From a phage, in sequence record NC_135728.1: DNA of 64,000 nucleotides; one strand, 5' to 3'. The notes under the pieces are model-generated. The model was not told the origin of the DNA. It ran no database searches and saw only the letters and a list, made by a program, of their open reading frames with translations. Shown here piece by piece: positions 28,422 through 63,565 of this stretch. The position numbers were made by a program, and so were the translations under genes. How positions within the stretch are numbered: position 1 is the first letter of the stretch; every line of letters starts with the position of its first letter.

Positions 28422-28847
28422 ACCCTCATCGAAGCAAACCATGGTGTACTCAAGCCCCTGATGGTTAAGCTTATCTTGTACATACTCCATGTGGCAGTAT
28501 TTTACAACAGCTCCCTTTTTGCTTCTATCCCACTTACCAGTGTTCGGATCAAACCGTGGAAAAATGAACTTATGATCCTTCTCTCTGAACTTTGGCTTAA
28601 TGTTTTCAGGCAGATCACTATAAATAGCTACTGCTTTAGGCCATAGTCCACCCTCACCTTCCAACTGTGGGGTTGTTCTTCGGAACATAACCACAGAGCT
28701 GTGGGGGTCATCAATAATTTTAAGTGGCATCAACTGCAAGAGGAACGACTTGCCAGACCCTGCGGCACCTCCGATTACCAAAATATCTGCATCGTTTTCT
28801 AGGATCATCTTCTGCTTTTCAGAACACGGTCCGTAAATCTTAGACAT
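28422..28847 (-). CDS. terminase large subunit, exon 1 (ATPase half)
   Basis: Walker A GGAAGSGKS and Walker B VCFDE; ends at ...VCFDEG followed by an intron-borne stop. Confidence 0.8.
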
Positions 28848-32642: not shown

Positions 32643-33145
32643 AGCTGCCTCCTCTTCAAGTTATAGAAAAACTCACTGTATCGCTTTGTAACGAGCTTTT
32701 CTATCAAACTGGTGCGATTGCCTTACTTGGTATAGTTTATATGGCTGTGGAGCGATTTAGGGGCCTCATTGTCCGTTTCCACACATAAACTTTATCCAAA
32801 CTCGCGCGGGAATCTCTCAACCGACTCCTTACGGCGCTGGCAAGCTTTCGTCGGTGGTCCACATTAGTGCTCGGCCTTTGGCCTGCGCTATCGCTTCGCT
32901 CCCACACATGTTAACAGACCTGCATGTATGCACTTCTGTTATTGTGTGCACTATGGAGGCCCGGCATCTCGCCCCTCGTAGGCGAGTGCCAATGAAGGGC
33001 CGACACTACCTATAGAAAGTAATAAATTTAAAACATGGTACTTAGGATCTAGTATATTCTACATAAGTTAAGTATATGTACTTAGTACCATAAGTACTAG
33101 ATCTTTTATTTTTTATTATTTAGTTATTTTAGTTATATTCTTTAT

Positions 33146-39463: not shown

Positions 39464-39586
39464 TGTAGGAAGGTTCAGCAGGTAACGGTAGCCAATTGAA
39501 TGATGGTTTTCAATCGGCACCTACATAACCACACTGTGTAGTGTTGTTGATTGTGTTAGTTATGAGTAAACTGGAGAGTATGAAAA

Positions 39587-40057
39587 ATGAAACTTGATAA
39601 AAATGTTCAACGAAAAGCTTTCTTGGATATGATCGCATATTCGGAAGGCACAGATAATGGTAGGCAACCCACTAAGGATCGGGGATACGATGTCATAGTT
39701 GGTGGCAAGCTGTTTAGCGATTACAGCAAGCATCCAGGTGTGTACGTTAAGCTAAATGCTAAACTTACCTCCTCCGCTGCTGGTCGTTACCAGGTTTTGG
39801 AGAAGTTTGCTAAACACTACATGGAACAGTTAGGATTGCCAGATTTTGGCCCTGCCAGTCAGGACAAGATTGCGTTGCAACTGATCCGTGAGTGCAAGGC
39901 TCTCGCCGACATTGACGAAGGGCGTATCCACGAGGCTATCCATAAATGCCGTTCCCGCTGGGCTTCGTTACCTGGTGCTGGATATGGTCAGCATGAACAG
40001 AAGATCGAGAAGTTGATCGAGGTGTTTAAAAAGGCAGGCGGTGTTGTCCTTGATTGA
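39587..40057 (+). CDS. endolysin, lambda R-type lytic transglycosylase
   Basis: Near-colinear similarity to phage lambda R as recalled (QRKAFLDM..SEGTDNGRQ..GYDVIVGG..AGRYQ..WASLPGAGYGQ). Confidence 0.9.
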   Translation: MKLDKNVQRKAFLDMIAYSEGTDNGRQPTKDRGYDVIVGGKLFSDYSKHPGVYVKLNAKLTSSAAGRYQVLEKFAKHYMEQLGLPDFGPASQDKIALQLIRECKALADIDEGRIHEAIHKCRSRWASLPGAGYGQHEQKIEKLIEVFKKAGGVVLD

Positions 40058-40060
40058 TCA

Positions 40061-40089
40061 TTGACATAACCACAAGGACGTGGTATTGT
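40061..40089 (+). promoter_or_regulatory. sigma70-like promoter with palindromic spacer (CCACAAGGACGTGG)
   Basis: TTGACA, 17-bp spacer, TATTGT; spacer palindrome recurs at 55792-55822. Confidence 0.5.
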
Positions 40090-40120
40090 TACCTCATAAA
40101 ATGTTTAGGAGGGCTTAACC

Positions 40121-40327
40121 ATGAAAGATTTTCTGTTGGCAATTTTGTTCATGGCAGCATGTCTGGCCTGTGGTGTCGTGTTTGCAGGTGAAACAGCGTA
40201 TCTTGTCGATGTATATCGGGACAATGGTAAACGTATTTGCCTTTATGAGACAAGTCAAGGTGAGCTCTACGAGCTTGTGAAACAAGGCGAGGCTGGATCT
40301 TGTCCTCGCACCCATTTCTTTGAATGA
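40121..40327 (+). CDS. small lipoprotein (68 aa)
   Basis: Signal peptide with lipobox-like LACG; RBS GGAGGG upstream. Confidence 0.5.
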   Translation: MKDFLLAILFMAACLACGVVFAGETAYLVDVYRDNGKRICLYETSQGELYELVKQGEAGSCPRTHFFE

Positions 40328-40336
40328 GGAGAATAC

Positions 40337-40801
40337 GTGGAAGACGGACGTTTAATGAAGTCTGAACGCAGGCTTATTGTGCAACTGATCCCAGAAACAG
40401 CTTGGTATAATAACCTCCGAAACGCTGTGAAGAAGAGTGAGTGGGATAAGATCCGTAAGAAGTGCTACAGAGAAGCCAACTACACTTGCGAGGTGTGCGG
40501 AGGTAAAGGCAGCAAACATCCAGTGGAGTGTCATGAACTTTACACTTTCGAAGAAGGAGTGATCCGTCTTGTCGGACTGATAGCGTTGTGCCCAGACTGT
40601 CACACATCGGTGCATCCTGGGTTAGCAAATATCCGTGGAAAGTATGCTCAGGCAGTTAATCAGTTGGCTAAGGTGAATAAGATCACCAAGGGTATGGCAG
40701 AGGCGTATTACCGAGACTGCTTTGCAGAGTGGCGTGAGCTTAGTAAAGTTCCAGAATGGAAGACTGACTTTTCGTGGATAGAGGGTTACCTTGATGGCTA
40801 A
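40337..40801 (+). CDS. zinc-binding HNH-like protein (154 aa), possible endonuclease
   Basis: CEVCGG ... HPVECHE ... CPDCH arrangement of Cys/His pairs. Confidence 0.4.
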   Translation: MEDGRLMKSERRLIVQLIPETAWYNNLRNAVKKSEWDKIRKKCYREANYTCEVCGGKGSKHPVECHELYTFEEGVIRLVGLIALCPDCHTSVHPGLANIRGKYAQAVNQLAKVNKITKGMAEAYYRDCFAEWRELSKVPEWKTDFSWIEGYLDG

Positions 40802-41084
40802 GAAACCTGTAAAAGAGAAATTTGATAAGACAGCTTTTGTATTCGATACACCTTTGGACGATATCATCAGAGGTATGCAAGCCTTGTATCGGAAGTCTGA
40901 ATCTGAGCAGCTGTCGGAATCAGAGCTTTACTGGTTGGGTTGGTGGGAGCTTAATCTACCTAAAGCTGAAAGCTCTGATCTAAAAACCGTTAAAACGTGT
41001 GCCCAAGAAAATGCTGCACTTGGAATTTACCACAAAAGAAAAAGATCAACAAAAAGCTCTCCAAGAAAGACTAAAAAGTCTTGA
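40791..41084 (+). CDS. hypothetical protein (97 aa), basic C-terminus
   Basis: ORF track. Confidence 0.4.
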   Translation: MMAKKPVKEKFDKTAFVFDTPLDDIIRGMQALYRKSESEQLSESELYWLGWWELNLPKAESSDLKTVKTCAQENAALGIYHKRKRSTKSSPRKTKKS

Positions 41085-41111
41085 CAAATGAGTCTCTGAT
41101 CTGATATTATC
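41081..41111 (+). promoter_or_regulatory. sigma70-like promoter
   Basis: TTGACA (41081-41086), 17-19 bp spacer, ATATTA/TATTAT; followed by RBS AGGAGA and ATG at 41144. Confidence 0.5.
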
Positions 41112-42584: not shown

Positions 42585-42916
42585 TGACTAAAAATGCTGT
42601 AGATAATGCAATTATGGAAGCTGTTTTTGAGGATGATCATACAACAGGGACACTTAAAACAAAAAACACATTTATTGTTGCCACAGGTATGTGGCGGTTG
42701 TACGAAGATGACACTATTGCATACATCTTGTATACTGATGATTACGCAGATGACCGTGTATGGTCTGCTGTTTTAAAAGAGGATTGTGAGCTGATTGAGG
42801 GCGAGCGGTTATGCATGTTCACCAGTGTGGAAACAGATGTTAAGCTTTGCTCTCTCGTCTTGTTCAAAGATAAGGCTTATGCTCCTGATGAAGGAGAGGA
42901 GGATGAGAGAGCATGA
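42581..42916 (+). CDS. hypothetical protein (111 aa)
   Basis: ORF track. Confidence 0.45.
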   Translation: MMTKNAVDNAIMEAVFEDDHTTGTLKTKNTFIVATGMWRLYEDDTIAYILYTDDYADDRVWSAVLKEDCELIEGERLCMFTSVETDVKLCSLVLFKDKAYAPDEGEEDERA

Positions 42917-53389: not shown

Positions 53390-53668
53390 ATGAGCTGTGA
53401 AAAATCTTTTTTCTTTATTATTTACGGTAAAGATAACTGCCCACATTGTGTAAGAGCAAAAGAATTTGCAGTCAGTAAAGGTCTGCCTTTTGTATATAAG
53501 ACACTTGGAGAGGGATACACAAAAGAAGAGCTTATTGAGAAGTGTAGTCCAATCGTCCCAAGAACGTTACCGCAGATCTTCTTAGAAAGCGATCTTGATA
53601 GTGTCCATGTAGGTGGTGCCGACGATTTCATCTCTTTTGTTAAGAATGATTTTGGAGAGAAAAAGTGA
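53390..53668 (+). CDS. glutaredoxin/NrdH-like redoxin
   Basis: Redox-active CPHC motif near the N-terminus; placed between nrdB and nrdD. Confidence 0.75.
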   Translation: MSCEKSFFFIIYGKDNCPHCVRAKEFAVSKGLPFVYKTLGEGYTKEELIEKCSPIVPRTLPQIFLESDLDSVHVGGADDFISFVKNDFGEKK

Positions 53669-55788
53669 AAGTTGTAAAACGGGACGGTAGAGAAGAGGTC
53701 TATAACGGAATTAAGGTGATCAAGGCGGCAGAGTCCGCCTTACTTGAGTCTGGACATACTGAAGAAGAAGCTTACCGGATCGCCTGCGCGGTTAATGAAG
53801 TTGTTGCTAACAATCTACCAACCGACCAGTGCACGATCTCTGTAAAAAATATCCATATCCTTGTTGAAGACGCTCTTATGGATATGGGTTTAAAATGTGC
53901 AGCCAGAGAATACATCCAGTATAGGCAGACAAGAGATAATAACAGAGAGGCAGGTGGAAAACTGCTTGCAGATATTAGTGGCTTCTTGGATCGCACTTGT
54001 GATGAATTTACAAAAGAAAACGCAAATAAGCCTACCAACCATGTACACACTCATCGTGACCTGCTTGCAGGCATCCTTAGCAAACACCTTGCATCAACAC
54101 AGATCCTGCCAGACCGTGTCTCCGAAGAGCACAATAAAGGCTTCATCCATGTGCATGATCTTGATTATTTGATCAGTCCGTTAACAAACTGTTGTTTGGT
54201 AAATTATCCAGATATGCTGGAAAACGGATTCAACATTGGTAACGCCCATGTCAGTAAGCCGAAGTCAATAGGGGTTGCAACAACAATCCTTAGCCAAATC
54301 TCTAGTGCGGTAGCTAGTGCTCAATATGGCGGTCAGACTATGAGCCATATTGATCATTATCTGGCACAGTATGCTGAAGCAACCTATGAGAAGAACCTTA
54401 AATTTTGCCAGGAACATTGGTTGCCAGATGCTGAGACTGTTGCAATGCAAATGACAGATAAAGACGTATTTGACAGCATGCAGACTTTGCTCTATCAAAT
54501 CAATACGTTAACTTCTGTCAACGGGCAAACTCCATTCATTACATTAAGTTTGGGTCTGGACACCTCAGTATTTGGTAGAATGATTACCAAAAACTACTTG
54601 AAAGTCCACAAAATGGGTCTTGGTGAAGAACGTATCACACCTGTGTTCCCTAAAGTGCTGTTCTTCCTAGAAGAGGGTGTCAACATGAACCCTGGAGATC
54701 CTAACTATGATTTGAAACGATTAGCTCTGGAATGCTCTGCAGAGCGGATTTATCCTGACTTTGTTTCTGTTCCACTAAATCGTAAAGTGACAGGCTCGAC
54801 AGATGGCAAAGTAACGAGCATGGGTTGCCGGAGTTTTCTTAGCAAATACAATGACTTGGAAACAGGTGAGGAGAAATACCTCGGCAGATTCAATTTGGGT
54901 GTTGTTAGTCTTAACCTACCAATGATTGCGGCAAAAGCTAAGACGGAAGGTGTTGATTTCTTTGCCGTTCTTGACGAATACCTGGATCTTGCATACGAGG
55001 CTCACCTTGTAAGGGTTAACCGTCTAAAAGGAACAAAGGCAGGGCAGAACCCTATCATGTGGTGTGAAGGTGCTCTTGCTCGCCTGGATCCTGAAGAGAG
55101 TATTGATAAACTCTTCTATGACGGGTACGCTTCCATCAGTATTGGGTATATTGGTGTGTATGAAACCTGTCAGATTTTGGGCAGGGAGGGTGACAAGGCT
55201 TTAGCTCTTGGAATACTTCAGCACATGAGAGATGCTTGCGAGCGATACAAGAAGGAAAGTAGACTAGCGTTTAGCTTGTACGGCACCCCTTCTGAGAGTC
55301 TATGCTATAAAGCTGCAACCTGTCTGGATCGTGAATATCCTGAAGTGTTGAAGCACGAGCATGAATATCTCACCAACAGTTTCCATCAGCCAGTGTGGAT
55401 CAATAGCTCTCCTTTTGATAAGTGGGAATATGAGGAAGGTTTTGCTATGATCTCCTCTGGTGGCAACATCGGGTACGTAGAGACACCAAATCTGAAAAAC
55501 AACTTAGATGCTTTAGAGGCTCTTGTTGACTTCGGGTATAAACACATTATGTATTTTGGTATTAACCAACCTGTGGATAAATGTCTCAAGTGTGGTTTCT
55601 CTGGTGAGTTCAGTGCAACAGCTAAAGGCTTTGTATGCCCAGAGTGTGGAAACCATGAAGAGGGAACGATCAGTGTGATCAGACGTGTATCCGGGTACCT
55701 GTCTAGTCCAAACTCCCGTCCTTACAATAAAGGTAAGCAAGCGGAAGTTATCGAGCGGGTTAAGCACTATGGAAGTTGTAGTTGCTGA
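53665..55788 (+). CDS. nrdD: anaerobic ribonucleotide reductase (class III)
   Basis: N-terminal ATP-cone, C-terminal glycyl-radical motif RRVSGYL, zinc site CPECG. Confidence 0.9.
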   Translation: MKVVKRDGREEVYNGIKVIKAAESALLESGHTEEEAYRIACAVNEVVANNLPTDQCTISVKNIHILVEDALMDMGLKCAAREYIQYRQTRDNNREAGGKLLADISGFLDRTCDEFTKENANKPTNHVHTHRDLLAGILSKHLASTQILPDRVSEEHNKGFIHVHDLDYLISPLTNCCLVNYPDMLENGFNIGNAHVSKPKSIGVATTILSQISSAVASAQYGGQTMSHIDHYLAQYAEATYEKNLKFCQEHWLPDAETVAMQMTDKDVFDSMQTLLYQINTLTSVNGQTPFITLSLGLDTSVFGRMITKNYLKVHKMGLGEERITPVFPKVLFFLEEGVNMNPGDPNYDLKRLALECSAERIYPDFVSVPLNRKVTGSTDGKVTSMGCRSFLSKYNDLETGEEKYLGRFNLGVVSLNLPMIAAKAKTEGVDFFAVLDEYLDLAYEAHLVRVNRLKGTKAGQNPIMWCEGALARLDPEESIDKLFYDGYASISIGYIGVYETCQILGREGDKALALGILQHMRDACERYKKESRLAFSLYGTPSESLCYKAATCLDREYPEVLKHEHEYLTNSFHQPVWINSSPFDKWEYEEGFAMISSGGNIGYVETPNLKNNLDALEALVDFGYKHIMYFGINQPVDKCLKCGFSGEFSATAKGFVCPECGNHEEGTISVIRRVSGYLSSPNSRPYNKGKQAEVIERVKHYGSCSC

Positions 55789-55791
55789 TAC

Positions 55792-55822
55792 TTGACAAAA
55801 GCCACAAGGATGTGGCATATTA
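55792..55822 (+). promoter_or_regulatory. sigma70-like promoter with palindromic spacer (CCACAAGGATGTGG)
   Basis: TTGACA (55792-55797), spacer palindrome, CATATT/ATATTA; followed by RBS GGAGG and ATG at 55852. Confidence 0.5.
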
Positions 55823-55851
55823 TTGACACACAGTGAGCTAGGAGGTACAGT

Positions 55852-55968
55852 ATGTCTAAAGGTATTTATAAAATTTGCAAGTGTGGTTGTCGTTGCAATC
55901 TTCGTTGGTGCAAGGCACTTGATGATTTTATTTGGCATTGCCCTGAATGCGATGCGGAGTACTTATAA
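55852..55968 (+). CDS. small cysteine-rich protein (38 aa), possible zinc ribbon
   Basis: Not in ORF track (short); ATG with strong RBS (GGAGGT, 7 nt); encodes MSKGIYKICKCGCRCNLRWCKALDDFIWHCPECDAEYL. Confidence 0.5.
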   Translation: MSKGIYKICKCGCRCNLRWCKALDDFIWHCPECDAEYL

Positions 55969-56119: not shown

Positions 56120-56356
56120 ATGATAGGTGTCTGTGTAAAAGCTAACAGATGGTTTACATTCGGTAAGGATTACGAAATTATCTTTCATTCGGACAGAGCC
56201 ACAACAGTAGAAAGCGATGATGGGTGCTACTGGTTCGTTAGTTACCATGGTGATGGGTATTATAGATCTACTGATTCCAGAGGGGAAGAAGCTGTTTTCT
56301 TAGATAGAGCTTATTGTGGGCCTGAATATCCCTACCTCAAAGAGGATAAGGAATGA
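56120..56356 (+). CDS. hypothetical protein (78 aa)
   Basis: ORF track; start-stop overlaps nrdG. Confidence 0.45.
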   Translation: MIGVCVKANRWFTFGKDYEIIFHSDRATTVESDDGCYWFVSYHGDGYYRSTDSRGEEAVFLDRAYCGPEYPYLKEDKE

Positions 56357-62513: not shown

Positions 62514-62699
62514 ATGGCAAAAAATAAATCTTTAGAGCAGGCTGAAAACCTTCTCCACGAGCTAGTAAAGGAGTGGAAAGTTGAATACTCAGATTTTAAT
62601 GCACGAGAGGGTGAAGATTATTGGCCTACGGAGCGCTCAGAGGGCGAATGGTATCAAGATTTTATAGAGTGGTTATATCAGACGTGTGATGAGGGGTGA
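62514..62699 (+). CDS. hypothetical protein (61 aa; start at second Met with RBS)
   Basis: ORF track 62496-62699; AAGGAGA RBS precedes the ATG at 62514. Confidence 0.4.
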   Translation: MAKNKSLEQAENLLHELVKEWKVEYSDFNAREGEDYWPTERSEGEWYQDFIEWLYQTCDEG

Positions 62700-63157
62700 C
62701 GATGTTTGTTAAATATGTAAAAACGTGCCTCAACAGTCTTGGCAGAGAGCATTGGTACACCTTACTTGAAAAAGGAGAAATTTTAACAAAATCTGGAAAG
62801 ATAACTTTGATACCCTTGGACGATAAAGACCCGTCACTCCTTGTCATAGATGATTACGTTACAGGTGTGTCGTACGAGGTCTCTGTGGAGAGGTTAATAC
62901 GCAGATCTGGAGGTCCTTATGACCGAAGAGAGTATGTTTTCGATTCTGTTACAGAGAAGGAAGATCCGTCTCTAATGTTCAGGATGGTAATCAGAGATAT
63001 GAGGTCATCTATAGACAGGATCGTAAAGGACATTAAGGAGCCTTTTAGGGTAAAAGTTAAGAAGTTTTTTGATTCTAAGATTAACATACTTGCCGTTGTG
63101 CTAGGCGTAATTCAACTTCTGTTAATTTTGCACTATCTTGAACTGTTGTTTAAGTAG
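62696..63157 (+). CDS. hypothetical protein (153 aa), C-terminal hydrophobic segment
   Basis: ORF track. Confidence 0.45.
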   Translation: MTMFVKYVKTCLNSLGREHWYTLLEKGEILTKSGKITLIPLDDKDPSLLVIDDYVTGVSYEVSVERLIRRSGGPYDRREYVFDSVTEKEDPSLMFRMVIRDMRSSIDRIVKDIKEPFRVKVKKFFDSKINILAVVLGVIQLLLILHYLELLFK

Positions 63158-63217
63158 TGTGCAATAAGGCACAAAGGATGTGCCATAACTAAATAAACTA
63201 AGAAAGAGGTAGAGAGA

Positions 63218-63565
63218 ATGCCAAAGATTAAATCGATATTAATGTGGGTAGCTGTTGTGGCTTTTGTAGGATACTGGACTTGGGAAACTGAATTAAAAGA
63301 TATCGGATATACCAGTCTTGAGAACAAGGCGTGCATTGGCATAACCGATGCATTCAGGCAAAATGCTATGGATCACGAATGTGTCGATGCAGACATAGAT
63401 GAGAAACTGTCTAAGGACAAAGACTTCTACCACGGGTATGCTTTGCTTGATAGTGGAGACACTGTAGAGTTCTGGTCGTGGTTCCGTAAAGATGGAACAA
63501 TAAAAACAGCAGTAAAGATCTCTAACAAAGAGTTAATGCTGTTGCAGCAGAAGGAGGCTCAATGA
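63218..63565 (+). CDS. hypothetical protein (115 aa) with N-terminal transmembrane/signal-anchor segment
   Basis: ORF track; hydrophobic N-terminus ILMWVAVVAFVGYW. Confidence 0.45.
   Translation: MPKIKSILMWVAVVAFVGYWTWETELKDIGYTSLENKACIGITDAFRQNAMDHECVDADIDEKLSKDKDFYHGYALLDSGDTVEFWSWFRKDGTIKTAVKISNKELMLLQQKEAQ

Follow-up and report, generated by a model that had tools for sequence, protein, structure and literature searches.

What does a palindrome do between the -35 and -10 elements of phage promoters? The initial annotation of a 64,000-nucleotide stretch of phage DNA (NC_135728.1; the window) described two promoters that share a CCAC...GTGG palindrome in their spacers, proposed a degenerate third copy at about 39520, and interpreted the repeat as a repressor or activator operator embedded in the promoters of a phage-specific regulon. 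We followed up this proposal by comparing promoters, relatives and other phages, and by analysing the pairing potential of the repeat.

Promoter candidates and their gene neighbourhood

The window belongs to a Vequintavirus (rV5-like myovirus) and, around the two sites, shares 99.7% identity with Escherichia phage MiataMamis and 99.5% with phage Murica. All genes around the sites are encoded on the + strand, and no DNA-binding domain was found in the genes next to either site. The features are as follows.

39587-40057, + strand: endolysin gene, upstream of site 1
40061-40089, + strand: site 1, predicted sigma70-type promoter-like sequence, TTGACA-TAACCACAAGGACGTGG-TATTGT (-35 at 40061-40066; 17-nt spacer; TGn at 40081-40083; -10 TATTGT at 40084-40089)
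40121-40327, + strand: 68-aa ORF (phrog_4641), downstream of site 1
40337-40801, + strand: HNH endonuclease gene, after the 68-aa ORF
53665-55788, + strand: nrdD, upstream of site 2
55792-55821, + strand: site 2, predicted sigma70-type promoter-like sequence, TTGACA-AAAGCCACAAGGATGTGG-CATATT
55852-55968, + strand: 38-aa Cys-rich ORF (phrog_20137), downstream of site 2 and upstream of nrdG

ORFans and homing-endonuclease genes adjoin both sites, and a 78-aa ORF nearby is common to the window phage and Rtp-like siphoviruses.

The sequence supports sites 1 and 2 as good candidates for sigma70-type promoters with an extended -10 element. Both have TTGACA as -35 hexamer (55792-55797 in site 2) and, judged against TAnnnT at 17 ± 1 nt after a TGn, an extended -10 element that reads TGG-TATTGT in site 1 and TGG-CATATT in site 2; the latter, behind an 18-nt spacer, has a weak hexamer (4/6 match, with C as first base). 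Each candidate starts 3 nt past the stop codon of the upstream gene, and the next ATG follows 31-32 nt downstream. Site 1 corresponds to predicted promoter P090 in the published list for rV5, in which it reads CCACACGGACGTGG (PMC3606486, Table S4), and the annotation of phage V5 lists it as a promoter. Site 2 is a PhagePromoter prediction in phage Gotham and is present in rV5_ev156, yet missing from the published rV5 list. We infer promoter function from the sequence and from the analogy to T4 promoters described below.

The spacers of both sites share CCACAAGGA(C/T)GTGG and are identical at 13 of 14 positions of this 14-mer. Among 34 Vequintavirus promoters, i.e., the 33 published for rV5 and site 2, they are the most alike of all 561 spacer pairs; with shuffled spacers, the best pair reached at least 13/14 with P = 0.007 and at least 12/14 with P = 0.043. 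The observation of two promoter candidates with a common palindrome was borne out (P about 0.01). The pattern CCAC-N6-GTGG occurs five times in the window as compared to 0.86 expected.

Palindromic spacers are not a general habit of these promoters, as the best arm in the spacers of the 33 rV5 promoters averaged 3.64, compared with 3.66 in shuffles, and because of this a 5-bp arm alone is unremarkable. Nor is any CCAC...GTGG repeat enriched in phage promoters: a scan for CCAC-N6-GTGG-TAnAAT found 60 stretches as compared to 99 with scrambled arms, and a set with a free loop and 4-bp arms showed no pairing beyond the imposed arms. As the scrambled control was higher and pairing did not extend, the finding is not one about palindromic spacers at large. 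The scrambled-arm control set contained a palindromic family of its own, TACCACC..GGTGGTA.

Other occurrences in the window were set aside. The sequence at about 39520 has the 11-mer ACATAACCACA in common with site 1 and lacks a GGA loop, right arm, -35 and -10; it is absent from the relative L069, not listed by the covariance model described below at E <= 10, and part of a different, longer hairpin, so that a degenerate third copy at this position was not upheld. The copy at 42681, GCCACAGGTATGTGGC, encodes the peptide A-T-G-M-W, which is the same in the homologue of L005, and the copy at 28691 lies inside a long minus-strand coding region without GGA loop or promoter elements; both were treated as by-products. 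Equating the palindrome with the terminator annotated in Murica would be wrong, as the annotated terminator comes after the 38-aa ORF.

Three hairpins in the window

Transcribed into RNA, both spacers can fold into short hairpins with GGA in the loop, and a third hairpin of this kind is present further downstream.

40069-40084, + strand: site 1 hairpin, ACCAC-AAGGAC-GUGGU, at -27 to -12 of the promoter; GGA at 40076-40078
From 40106, + strand: Shine-Dalgarno sequence UAGGAGG of the 68-aa ORF; GGA at 40108-40110, 32 nt past the site 1 loop GGA
55801-55816, + strand: site 2 hairpin, GCCACA-AGGA-UGUGGC; GGA at 55808-55810
From 55840, + strand: Shine-Dalgarno sequence AGGAGG of the 38-aa ORF; GGA at 55841-55843, 33 nt past the site 2 loop GGA
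63168-63184, + strand: third hairpin, GGCACA-AAGGA-UGUGCC, identified with the covariance model; GGA at 63176-63178
62696-63157 and 63218-63565, + strand: ORFs bracketing the third hairpin

A covariance model, built from an alignment of the family promoters described below, gave high scores in the window to sites 1 and 2 alone, with 32.8 bits (E 7e-7) and 30.9 bits (E 2.4e-6), respectively, both sites having been part of the training alignment. Folded alone, the site 1 hairpin has -7.5 kcal/mol, and it lies outside the minimum-energy fold of its 71-nt context; the site 2 hairpin has -9.3 kcal/mol (z -3.7). A terminator scan flagged site 2 only, and no U-tract follows either stem. Rfam contained nothing relevant at site 1 or site 2.

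The third hairpin, with two outer G-C pairs and a 5-nt loop, scored 13.2 bits in the window (E 0.33; match 63166-63189), which is not significant alone, and 21.7 bits (E 0.004) in its MiataMamis homologue. A Shine-Dalgarno GG at 63208 lies 32 nt past its loop GGA. The surrounding sequence in the window has no usable -35 or -10 (GCAATA ... CATAAC). The window, MiataMamis, Murica and EPFV3 agree at all 17 nt of the hairpin, and both flanks vary, including the would-be -35 and -10. At 63168-63184, the hairpin is conserved and no promoter is conserved around it. A motif search across a whole genome, a check that the initial annotation had suggested, yielded only two promoter copies and this one promoter-less hairpin in the 136.6-kb genome of MiataMamis, the closest relative. 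The promoter-less hairpin had gone unseen in the initial annotation.

Conservation and mosaic junctions in related phages

Site 1 was compared in nine Vequintaviruses and site 2 in seven genomes and EPFV3. The site 1 sequences follow TTGACAT[A/G]A-CCACA-[A/C/T]-GGA-[C/T]-GTGG-TATT[G/T]T; spacer variation is confined to three positions (N, Y and one flank) and substitutions avoid the core, with the downstream leader being far more variable. Site 2 is invariant in the seven genomes. In EPFV3, the left arm of site 2 is changed from GCCACA to GUCACA (C-to-U), and a U.G pair remains.

More distant relatives differ. In a sister clade (L005-L007, endolysin 82% identical), a promoter is present at site 1 with an unrelated spacer and no hairpin. 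The site 1 hairpin is dispensable there, as the promoter persists without it. In Phapecoctavirus and Seunavirus, nrdD and nrdG overlap and site 2 is absent. In phiWec193, DrSchubert and L069, a mosaic junction coincides with the 5' edge of site 1, and in ECML-10 one coincides with the 3' edge of the hairpin of site 2.

Occurrence in T-even and uncultured phages

The motif also occurs in other phages. BLAST of the promoter against phages in GenBank matched hundreds of T-even-type genomes. Two copies of TAGTTTACTTT(A/G)CCACAAGGATGTGGTATAAT are present in T4 itself, one before rIIA.1 and one before nrdC.4, and these are almost identical across about 35 nt; the 15 nt GCCACAAGGATGTGG are identical between site 2 and the T4 copy upstream of nrdC.4. 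The core was also found in Dhakavirus JS98, Jiaodavirus JD18, Winklervirus X20, Karamvirus KaAlpha and Tequatrovirus AugustSocin. It is more than the spacer of the T4 early promoter consensus, which accounts for the right half only.

An exact-pattern scan of IMG/VR for TTGACA-N3-4-CCACA-N-GGA-Y-GTGG, in which no -10 was demanded, retrieved promoters from unrelated contigs, and nearly all matches were followed by a good -10. At least seven such promoters, in addition to degenerate variants, occur in one group of uncultured phages, whose DNA polymerase shares 59% identity with its counterpart in Burkholderia phage Bm1. CACA-N-GGA-Y-GTG is the core common to these promoters of T4, other T-even genera and many uncultured phages. 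It stays fixed, and the hexamers at -35 and -10 track the consensus of each lineage (TTTAC[A/T] in T-evens, TTGACA here). A phage-specific regulon, as initially proposed, does not fit two or three copies per genome and a core that recurs in T4, five other Tevenvirinae genera and uncultured phages. In the fragments compared, no protein was common to Vequintavirus and the uncultured phage group.

Bacterial genomes offer no counterpart. Bacterial and archaeal genomes totalling 596 Gb gave 11 matches in unrelated taxa, none of them followed by a -10, against a rough chance estimate of about 17, and the 32-mer had no match in 5,426 complete E. coli genomes. With matches at chance level only, a host transcription factor site or regulon was rejected. 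We know of no match to DnaA, CRP, NrdR, IscR or other host boxes.

Covariation of the stem and its dependence on the GGA loop

We used a scan in which the core CACA-N-GGA-Y-GTG was fixed, position -26 was forced to be non-C and position -13 was left free. Among the 17 distinct promoters obtained, -26:-13 was G-C in six, A-T in five, T-A in three, G.T in one and mismatched in two, i.e., 14 Watson-Crick pairs and one G.U pair. An alignment of 38 distinct promoters of the family has the following pairs.

-26:-13: CG 21, GC 6, AU 4, UA 3, GU 1, UG 1, other 2
-27:-12: AU 20, GU 13, GC 2, CG 1, UG 1, other 1

In this alignment, pairing holds for 93% of the cells, and the covariation score of 0.300, as compared to 0.101 in shuffles, was reached by none of 500 shuffles; slid controls all had far lower covariation. 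The sequences are not phylogenetically independent, although each type of pair is found in several unrelated contigs. One contig carries promoters with C-G (L078, L079) and one with G-C (L280), and the sixth pair, -27:-12, is likewise compensatory (G-C in site 2 vs C-G in contig L072).

Pairing depends on the loop. Among 86 distinct control promoters with a CACA-N4-Y-GTG spacer and a loop other than GGA, -26:-13 is a Watson-Crick pair in 34%, and the difference between GGA and non-GGA loops is significant at -26:-13 (Fisher, P = 2e-4) and at -27:-12 (P = 8e-6). CACA, GGA, GTG and the three inner pairs are invariant in the wider family because the search patterns fixed them, and only the Vequintavirus alignments and the T-even sites found by BLAST support GGA independently.

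The stem is under selection, jointly with the GGA loop. Frequent G.U pairs and the restriction of pairing to GGA loops point to a hairpin in sense-strand RNA rather than to duplex DNA. The palindrome between -35 and -10 is a real, selected element, and its covariation points to an RNA hairpin rather than a DNA operator. A repressor or activator operator is contradicted by the G.U pairs and the asymmetric GGA, and gains no support from the third copy, which keeps the hairpin while its promoter-like flanks drift. Judged from covariation, some conserved phage promoter spacers are constrained at the RNA level, whatever binds them.

CsrA as a candidate ligand

The phage element can be written as N-N-C-A-C-[A-N-G-G-A-Y]-G-U-G-N'-N', and its closing pairs, loop and degenerate positions match the consensus of CsrA. 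In the SELEX consensus of CsrA, RUACARGGAUGU, ACA and GGA are invariant and GU is nearly so; 51 of 55 ligands formed a short hairpin that carried GGA in its loop, which in most cases had 6 nt and AC/GU as closing pairs, and a CsrA dimer can bridge two sites spaced 10-63 nt apart (review PMC7652899). All three window hairpins have GGA in the loop of a short hairpin and ACA and GU around it: ACA-A-GGA-C-GU in site 1, ACA-A-GGA-U-GU in site 2 and ACA-AA-GGA-U-GU, with one extra A, in the third. A second GGA near the Shine-Dalgarno sequence lies within the bridging range, at 32, 33 and 32 nt for sites 1, 2 and the third hairpin, respectively. Across 41 family members, the median distance from loop GGA to Shine-Dalgarno sequence is 33 nt (interquartile range 32-38), and 36 of the 41 fall within 10-63 nt.

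It is tempting to propose that the element combines a promoter with a CsrA-type hairpin that would be present on read-through transcripts only; this is our best reading, to which we assign almost an even chance. Sites 1 and 2 would be internal sigma70 promoters directly behind the upstream stop codon, with the spacer and the first base of the -10 encoding a sense-strand hairpin of 5-6 bp with an A-N-GGA-Y loop. As -27 to -12 precedes the start point, the hairpin would occur only on read-through RNA and be absent from promoter-initiated RNA. Read-through is plausible because there is no convincing terminator between upstream promoter-like sites and either hairpin. On the read-through mRNA, a host CsrA dimer might bridge the hairpin and the Shine-Dalgarno GGA, and this bridging could repress or otherwise modulate the downstream ORF at the level of translation or stability. 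The internal promoter would give rise to a CsrA-independent mRNA isoform that escapes control. The analysis shows the sequence family, its spread over unrelated phages, the covariation of the stem and its reliance on the GGA loop, and the spacing, and from these sequence data we infer promoter activity, read-through RNA, CsrA binding and regulatory outcome alike.

A knock-down of csrA gave E. coli a broad fitness advantage with several phages present (PMC7553319), which forms a background to the CsrA reading. Several points weigh against it. ACA and GU follow automatically from the 3' arm of the hairpin being the extended -10 motif UGUGG; the independent coincidence with the CsrA consensus is the loop GGA only, roughly 1 in 30. 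Stems of 5-6 bp are longer than the typical 4 bp or fewer of SELEX ligands, the loop of the third hairpin has 5 nt, the sister clade L005-L007 does without the hairpin at site 1, and an ordinary short promoter leader would give the same spacing of 32-33 nt. Most Vequintavirus site 1 alleles read ACACGGACGU and deviate from the CsrA consensus at its two degenerate positions. Across the Vequintavirus genome, ACA.GGA.GT as a decamer shows no enrichment (6 vs 3.7 expected), and some hosts of the uncultured phages may lack CsrA.

Alternative explanations

The main alternative to CsrA is that the RNA hairpin has another role, e.g., as a compact PeSL-like attenuator, 3'-end stabiliser, processing signal or target of another GGA-recognising factor, which we consider unlikely. 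Covariation supports an RNA hairpin irrespective of its binder, and the PeSLs of T4-type phages are known cassettes of promoter and stem-loop, the stem-loops terminating transcription (PMC2839356, PMC4122927). The window hairpins begin 11-13 nt past the upstream stop codon, the terminator scan flagged site 2, and mosaic junctions abut both promoters. However, both stems are weak by their folding energies and lack a U-tract, and the site 1 hairpin is not part of the minimum-energy fold of its context. A purely structural role would, moreover, leave the invariant GGA and the restriction of stem extension to GGA loops unexplained.

A dyad-symmetric DNA operator for a phage or host repressor or activator with a small regulon is highly improbable. 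An inverted repeat between -35 and -10 occupies a classic operator position, as in lambda OL1 and the MerR family, and MiataMamis has one small protein annotated as transcriptional regulator (phrog_639). Yet 13 of 38 promoters have G.U at -27:-12, which is not symmetric in double-stranded DNA, and the conserved GGA centre is asymmetric. The genome has two promoter copies only, the fragments compared share no protein with the uncultured group, bacterial genomes lack promoter-like copies, and spacers of 17-18 nt are unsuited to MerR-type control. T4 DNA carries glucosyl-hydroxymethylcytosine, which makes a duplex-reading protein common to T4 and an unmodified rV5-like phage unlikely and is irrelevant for RNA. 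Improbable, if less so, is an element intrinsic to RNA polymerase, in which TRTGn and a Z-element-like contact at -22 to -18 would reflect convergence on very strong early promoters, the repeat being incidental. RNA polymerase is the sole factor common to all these phages; under a matrix of 15 other T4 early-type promoters, the right arm YGTGG scores best as extended -10 region (P 0.0003-0.002), 'additional regions of consensus' have been ascribed to T4 early promoters (PMC2988021), and the beta' zipper reads the spacer at -22 to -18 (PMC3173786). Under the T4 matrix, however, the left arm and GGA are at chance (P 0.11), known Z-elements read AACCT, AACAT or AATGT and not A-N-GGA (PMC3173786), covariation of -26/-27 with -13/-12 by Watson-Crick and G.U pairing is not expected from contacts with the polymerase, and the third hairpin is kept without a promoter. 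Common descent of a duplicated or horizontally moved promoter cassette, maybe spread by recombination like PeSLs and with a hairpin devoid of its own function, appears improbable to a similar degree. It would account for the near-identity of the T4 copies over about 35 nt and the 15 nt common to T4 and site 2, for mosaic junctions at promoter edges (phiWec193, DrSchubert, L069, ECML-10), and for the adjoining homing-endonuclease genes and ORFans and the 78-aa ORF common to Rtp-like siphoviruses. Descent alone does not produce compensatory pairs, though, and the hexamers are lineage-specific while the core is fixed and spared by Vequintavirus substitutions.

Significance

Composite promoter/stem-loops and CsrA sites are each already known, but the literature searched contained no description of a GGA-loop hairpin that is nested in a promoter spacer and covaries across T4-like, rV5-like and other phages, nor of the sequence strings or of CsrA in phage promoters. 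Extending the CsrA reading to all these phages, we suggest as possible, though rather doubtful, that a dual-use module exists in unrelated virulent phages (T4-like, rV5-like, jumbo and uncultured), in which the promoter spacer doubles as a CsrA hairpin and two mRNA isoforms arise, only the read-through one being CsrA-controlled.

If the hairpin binds CsrA, a major post-transcriptional regulator of the host would act directly on mRNAs of model and therapeutic coliphages (T4, rV5-like). Phage gene expression would then be coupled to the Csr state of the host, or abundant CsrA would be exploited, and the hairpin would be the first known cis-element through which CsrA is tied to the lytic development of phages. 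CsrA binding would also account for some of the extra consensus in T4 early promoters that has lacked an explanation. As a design principle, an RNA site would be hidden in a promoter, so that promoter choice decides whether the mRNA carries the site. Even without CsrA, an RNA-level constraint on spacers matters for promoter annotation and phage engineering. Short RNA oligos and the available genetics of T4 allow a direct test of the CsrA prediction.

Comparison with known systems

Spacer operators such as lambda OL1 in PL and those of the MerR family have an inverted repeat between -35 and -10, as here. The phage element differs from them in its pairing by RNA rules, its asymmetric conserved centre, spacers of 17-18 instead of 19-20 nt, its spread over unrelated phages and the lack of a known cognate regulator. 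With regard to the extended -10 (TGn/TRTGn) and the Z-element, the right arm YGTGG corresponds to TRTGn and GGA falls in the zipper-contacted region at -20 to -18. The sequence from -22 to -18, A-N-GGA, is however not that of a Z-element, and complementarity of the left arm is no requirement of the polymerase.

PeSL cassettes of T4-type phages likewise combine a strong sigma70-like promoter with a stem-loop in intergenic gaps beside ORFans and homing-endonuclease genes. Indel or mosaic junctions lie at the present sites in relatives, and near-identical copies occur within one genome in T4, which recalls PeSLs. PeSL stem-loops are G/C-rich terminators beside the promoter and occur in dozens of copies, whereas the hairpin described here is small and nested at -27 to -12, lacks a U-tract, always has GGA in its loop, and is present in two or three copies per genome. 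The T4 early-type promoters before rIIA.1 and nrdC.4 have the same core, register and placement after a stop codon, with 29-32 nt to the Shine-Dalgarno sequence. They differ from the window sites in their -35 (TTTACT), their perfect -10 (TATAAT) and the modified DNA of T4, and are known here from sequence.

Compared with CsrA/RsmA sites such as those in the glgC leader and the CsrB/CsrC repeats, the phage element has any base at N and often C at Y, lies inside a promoter spacer and is hence isoform-specific, is phage-borne, has stems of 5-6 bp and is a predicted site. It resembles them in having a hairpin with a GGA loop, paired ACA/GU flanks and a second GGA in the Shine-Dalgarno sequence, and, when Y = C, a CsrA/RsmA-like loop of 6 nt, A-N-GGA-Y.

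Mosaic junctions and small reading frames at the two promoter-like sites

The mosaic junctions seen in relatives coincide exactly with the edges of two sigma70-type promoter-like elements, at 40052-40060 for site 1 (40061-40089, after the endolysin gene) and at 55816-55817 for site 2 (55792-55821, after nrdD). In phiWec193, DrSchubert and a further relative (L069), the gene upstream of site 1 codes for a homing endonuclease or for another endolysin. At site 2, divergence in ECML-10 starts directly 3' of the hairpin, with loss of the -10 element, and in CM1 the site is replaced. Two small open reading frames (ORFs) lie between nrdD and nrdG:

55852-55968, 38-aa ORF with two CxxC-type pairs, MSKGIYKICKCGCRCN...HCPECDAEYL
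56120-56356, 78-aa ORF (phrog_3249), between the 38-aa ORF and nrdG

The 38-aa ORF is kept across Vequintaviruses and bears the PHROG label 'ribonucleotide reductase', which is without Pfam support. The 78-aa ORF, which is absent from many Vequintaviruses and shares 71-74% DNA identity with a gene of Rtp-like siphoviruses, appears to be a cassette exchanged horizontally.

Further repeats and hairpins

The initial annotation had counted ACATAACCACA, at about 39520, as a degenerate third copy of the promoter. This sequence falls outside the family of spacer hairpins of the form CACA-N-GGA-Y-GTG (GGA-hairpin family) and is instead part of a long imperfect hairpin of about 17 bp in the ligase-endolysin gap (39511-39553; -18.2 kcal/mol, z -1.7). 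Perfect CCACA-N4-TGTGG repeats occur inside coding regions:

28691-28704, perfect repeat
42681-42694, perfect repeat

The latter encodes the peptide A-T-G-M-W, and the homologue in a relative (L005) reads GCCACAGGGATGTGGC; the repeat is therefore a by-product of the protein sequence.

Two further elements, both from parts of the genome that the window does not cover, were found in the closest relative, MiataMamis (PP925834):

53623-53638, minus strand, GGA-loop hairpin AGCAC-AGGGAG-GUGCU without promoter hexamers
about 32758-32786, minus strand, CTTACATAACCACAAAAGCGTGTTCTACG, sharing 19 of 29 positions with site 1

The GGA-loop hairpin, a further one of its kind, follows immediately on the stop codon of the DNA polymerase gene and precedes the next Shine-Dalgarno sequence by 21 nt. 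The second element, which may represent a decayed copy, lies where an array of minus-strand genes is interrupted for 730 bp, and the record annotates this gap with tiny plus-strand ORFs.

Inverted repeats in other phage promoters

A large family of phage promoters among IMG/VR loci (L146-L244) has the form TTGACA-TACCACC-N3-5-GGTGGTA-TAAT. Their inverted repeats of 8-9 bp occupy the whole spacer, and the free positions show significant pairing. These promoters lack the GGA and are a spacer-hairpin family distinct from the GGA-hairpin family. The promoter-like sequence at 41081-41110 (TTGACA-18-TATTAT), which corresponds to the published predicted rV5 promoter P093, contains the perfect inverted repeat CTGATA-T-TATCAG with the -10 element at its centre. 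The same arrangement occurs in T4, where inverted repeats span the -10 element in several early-type promoters.
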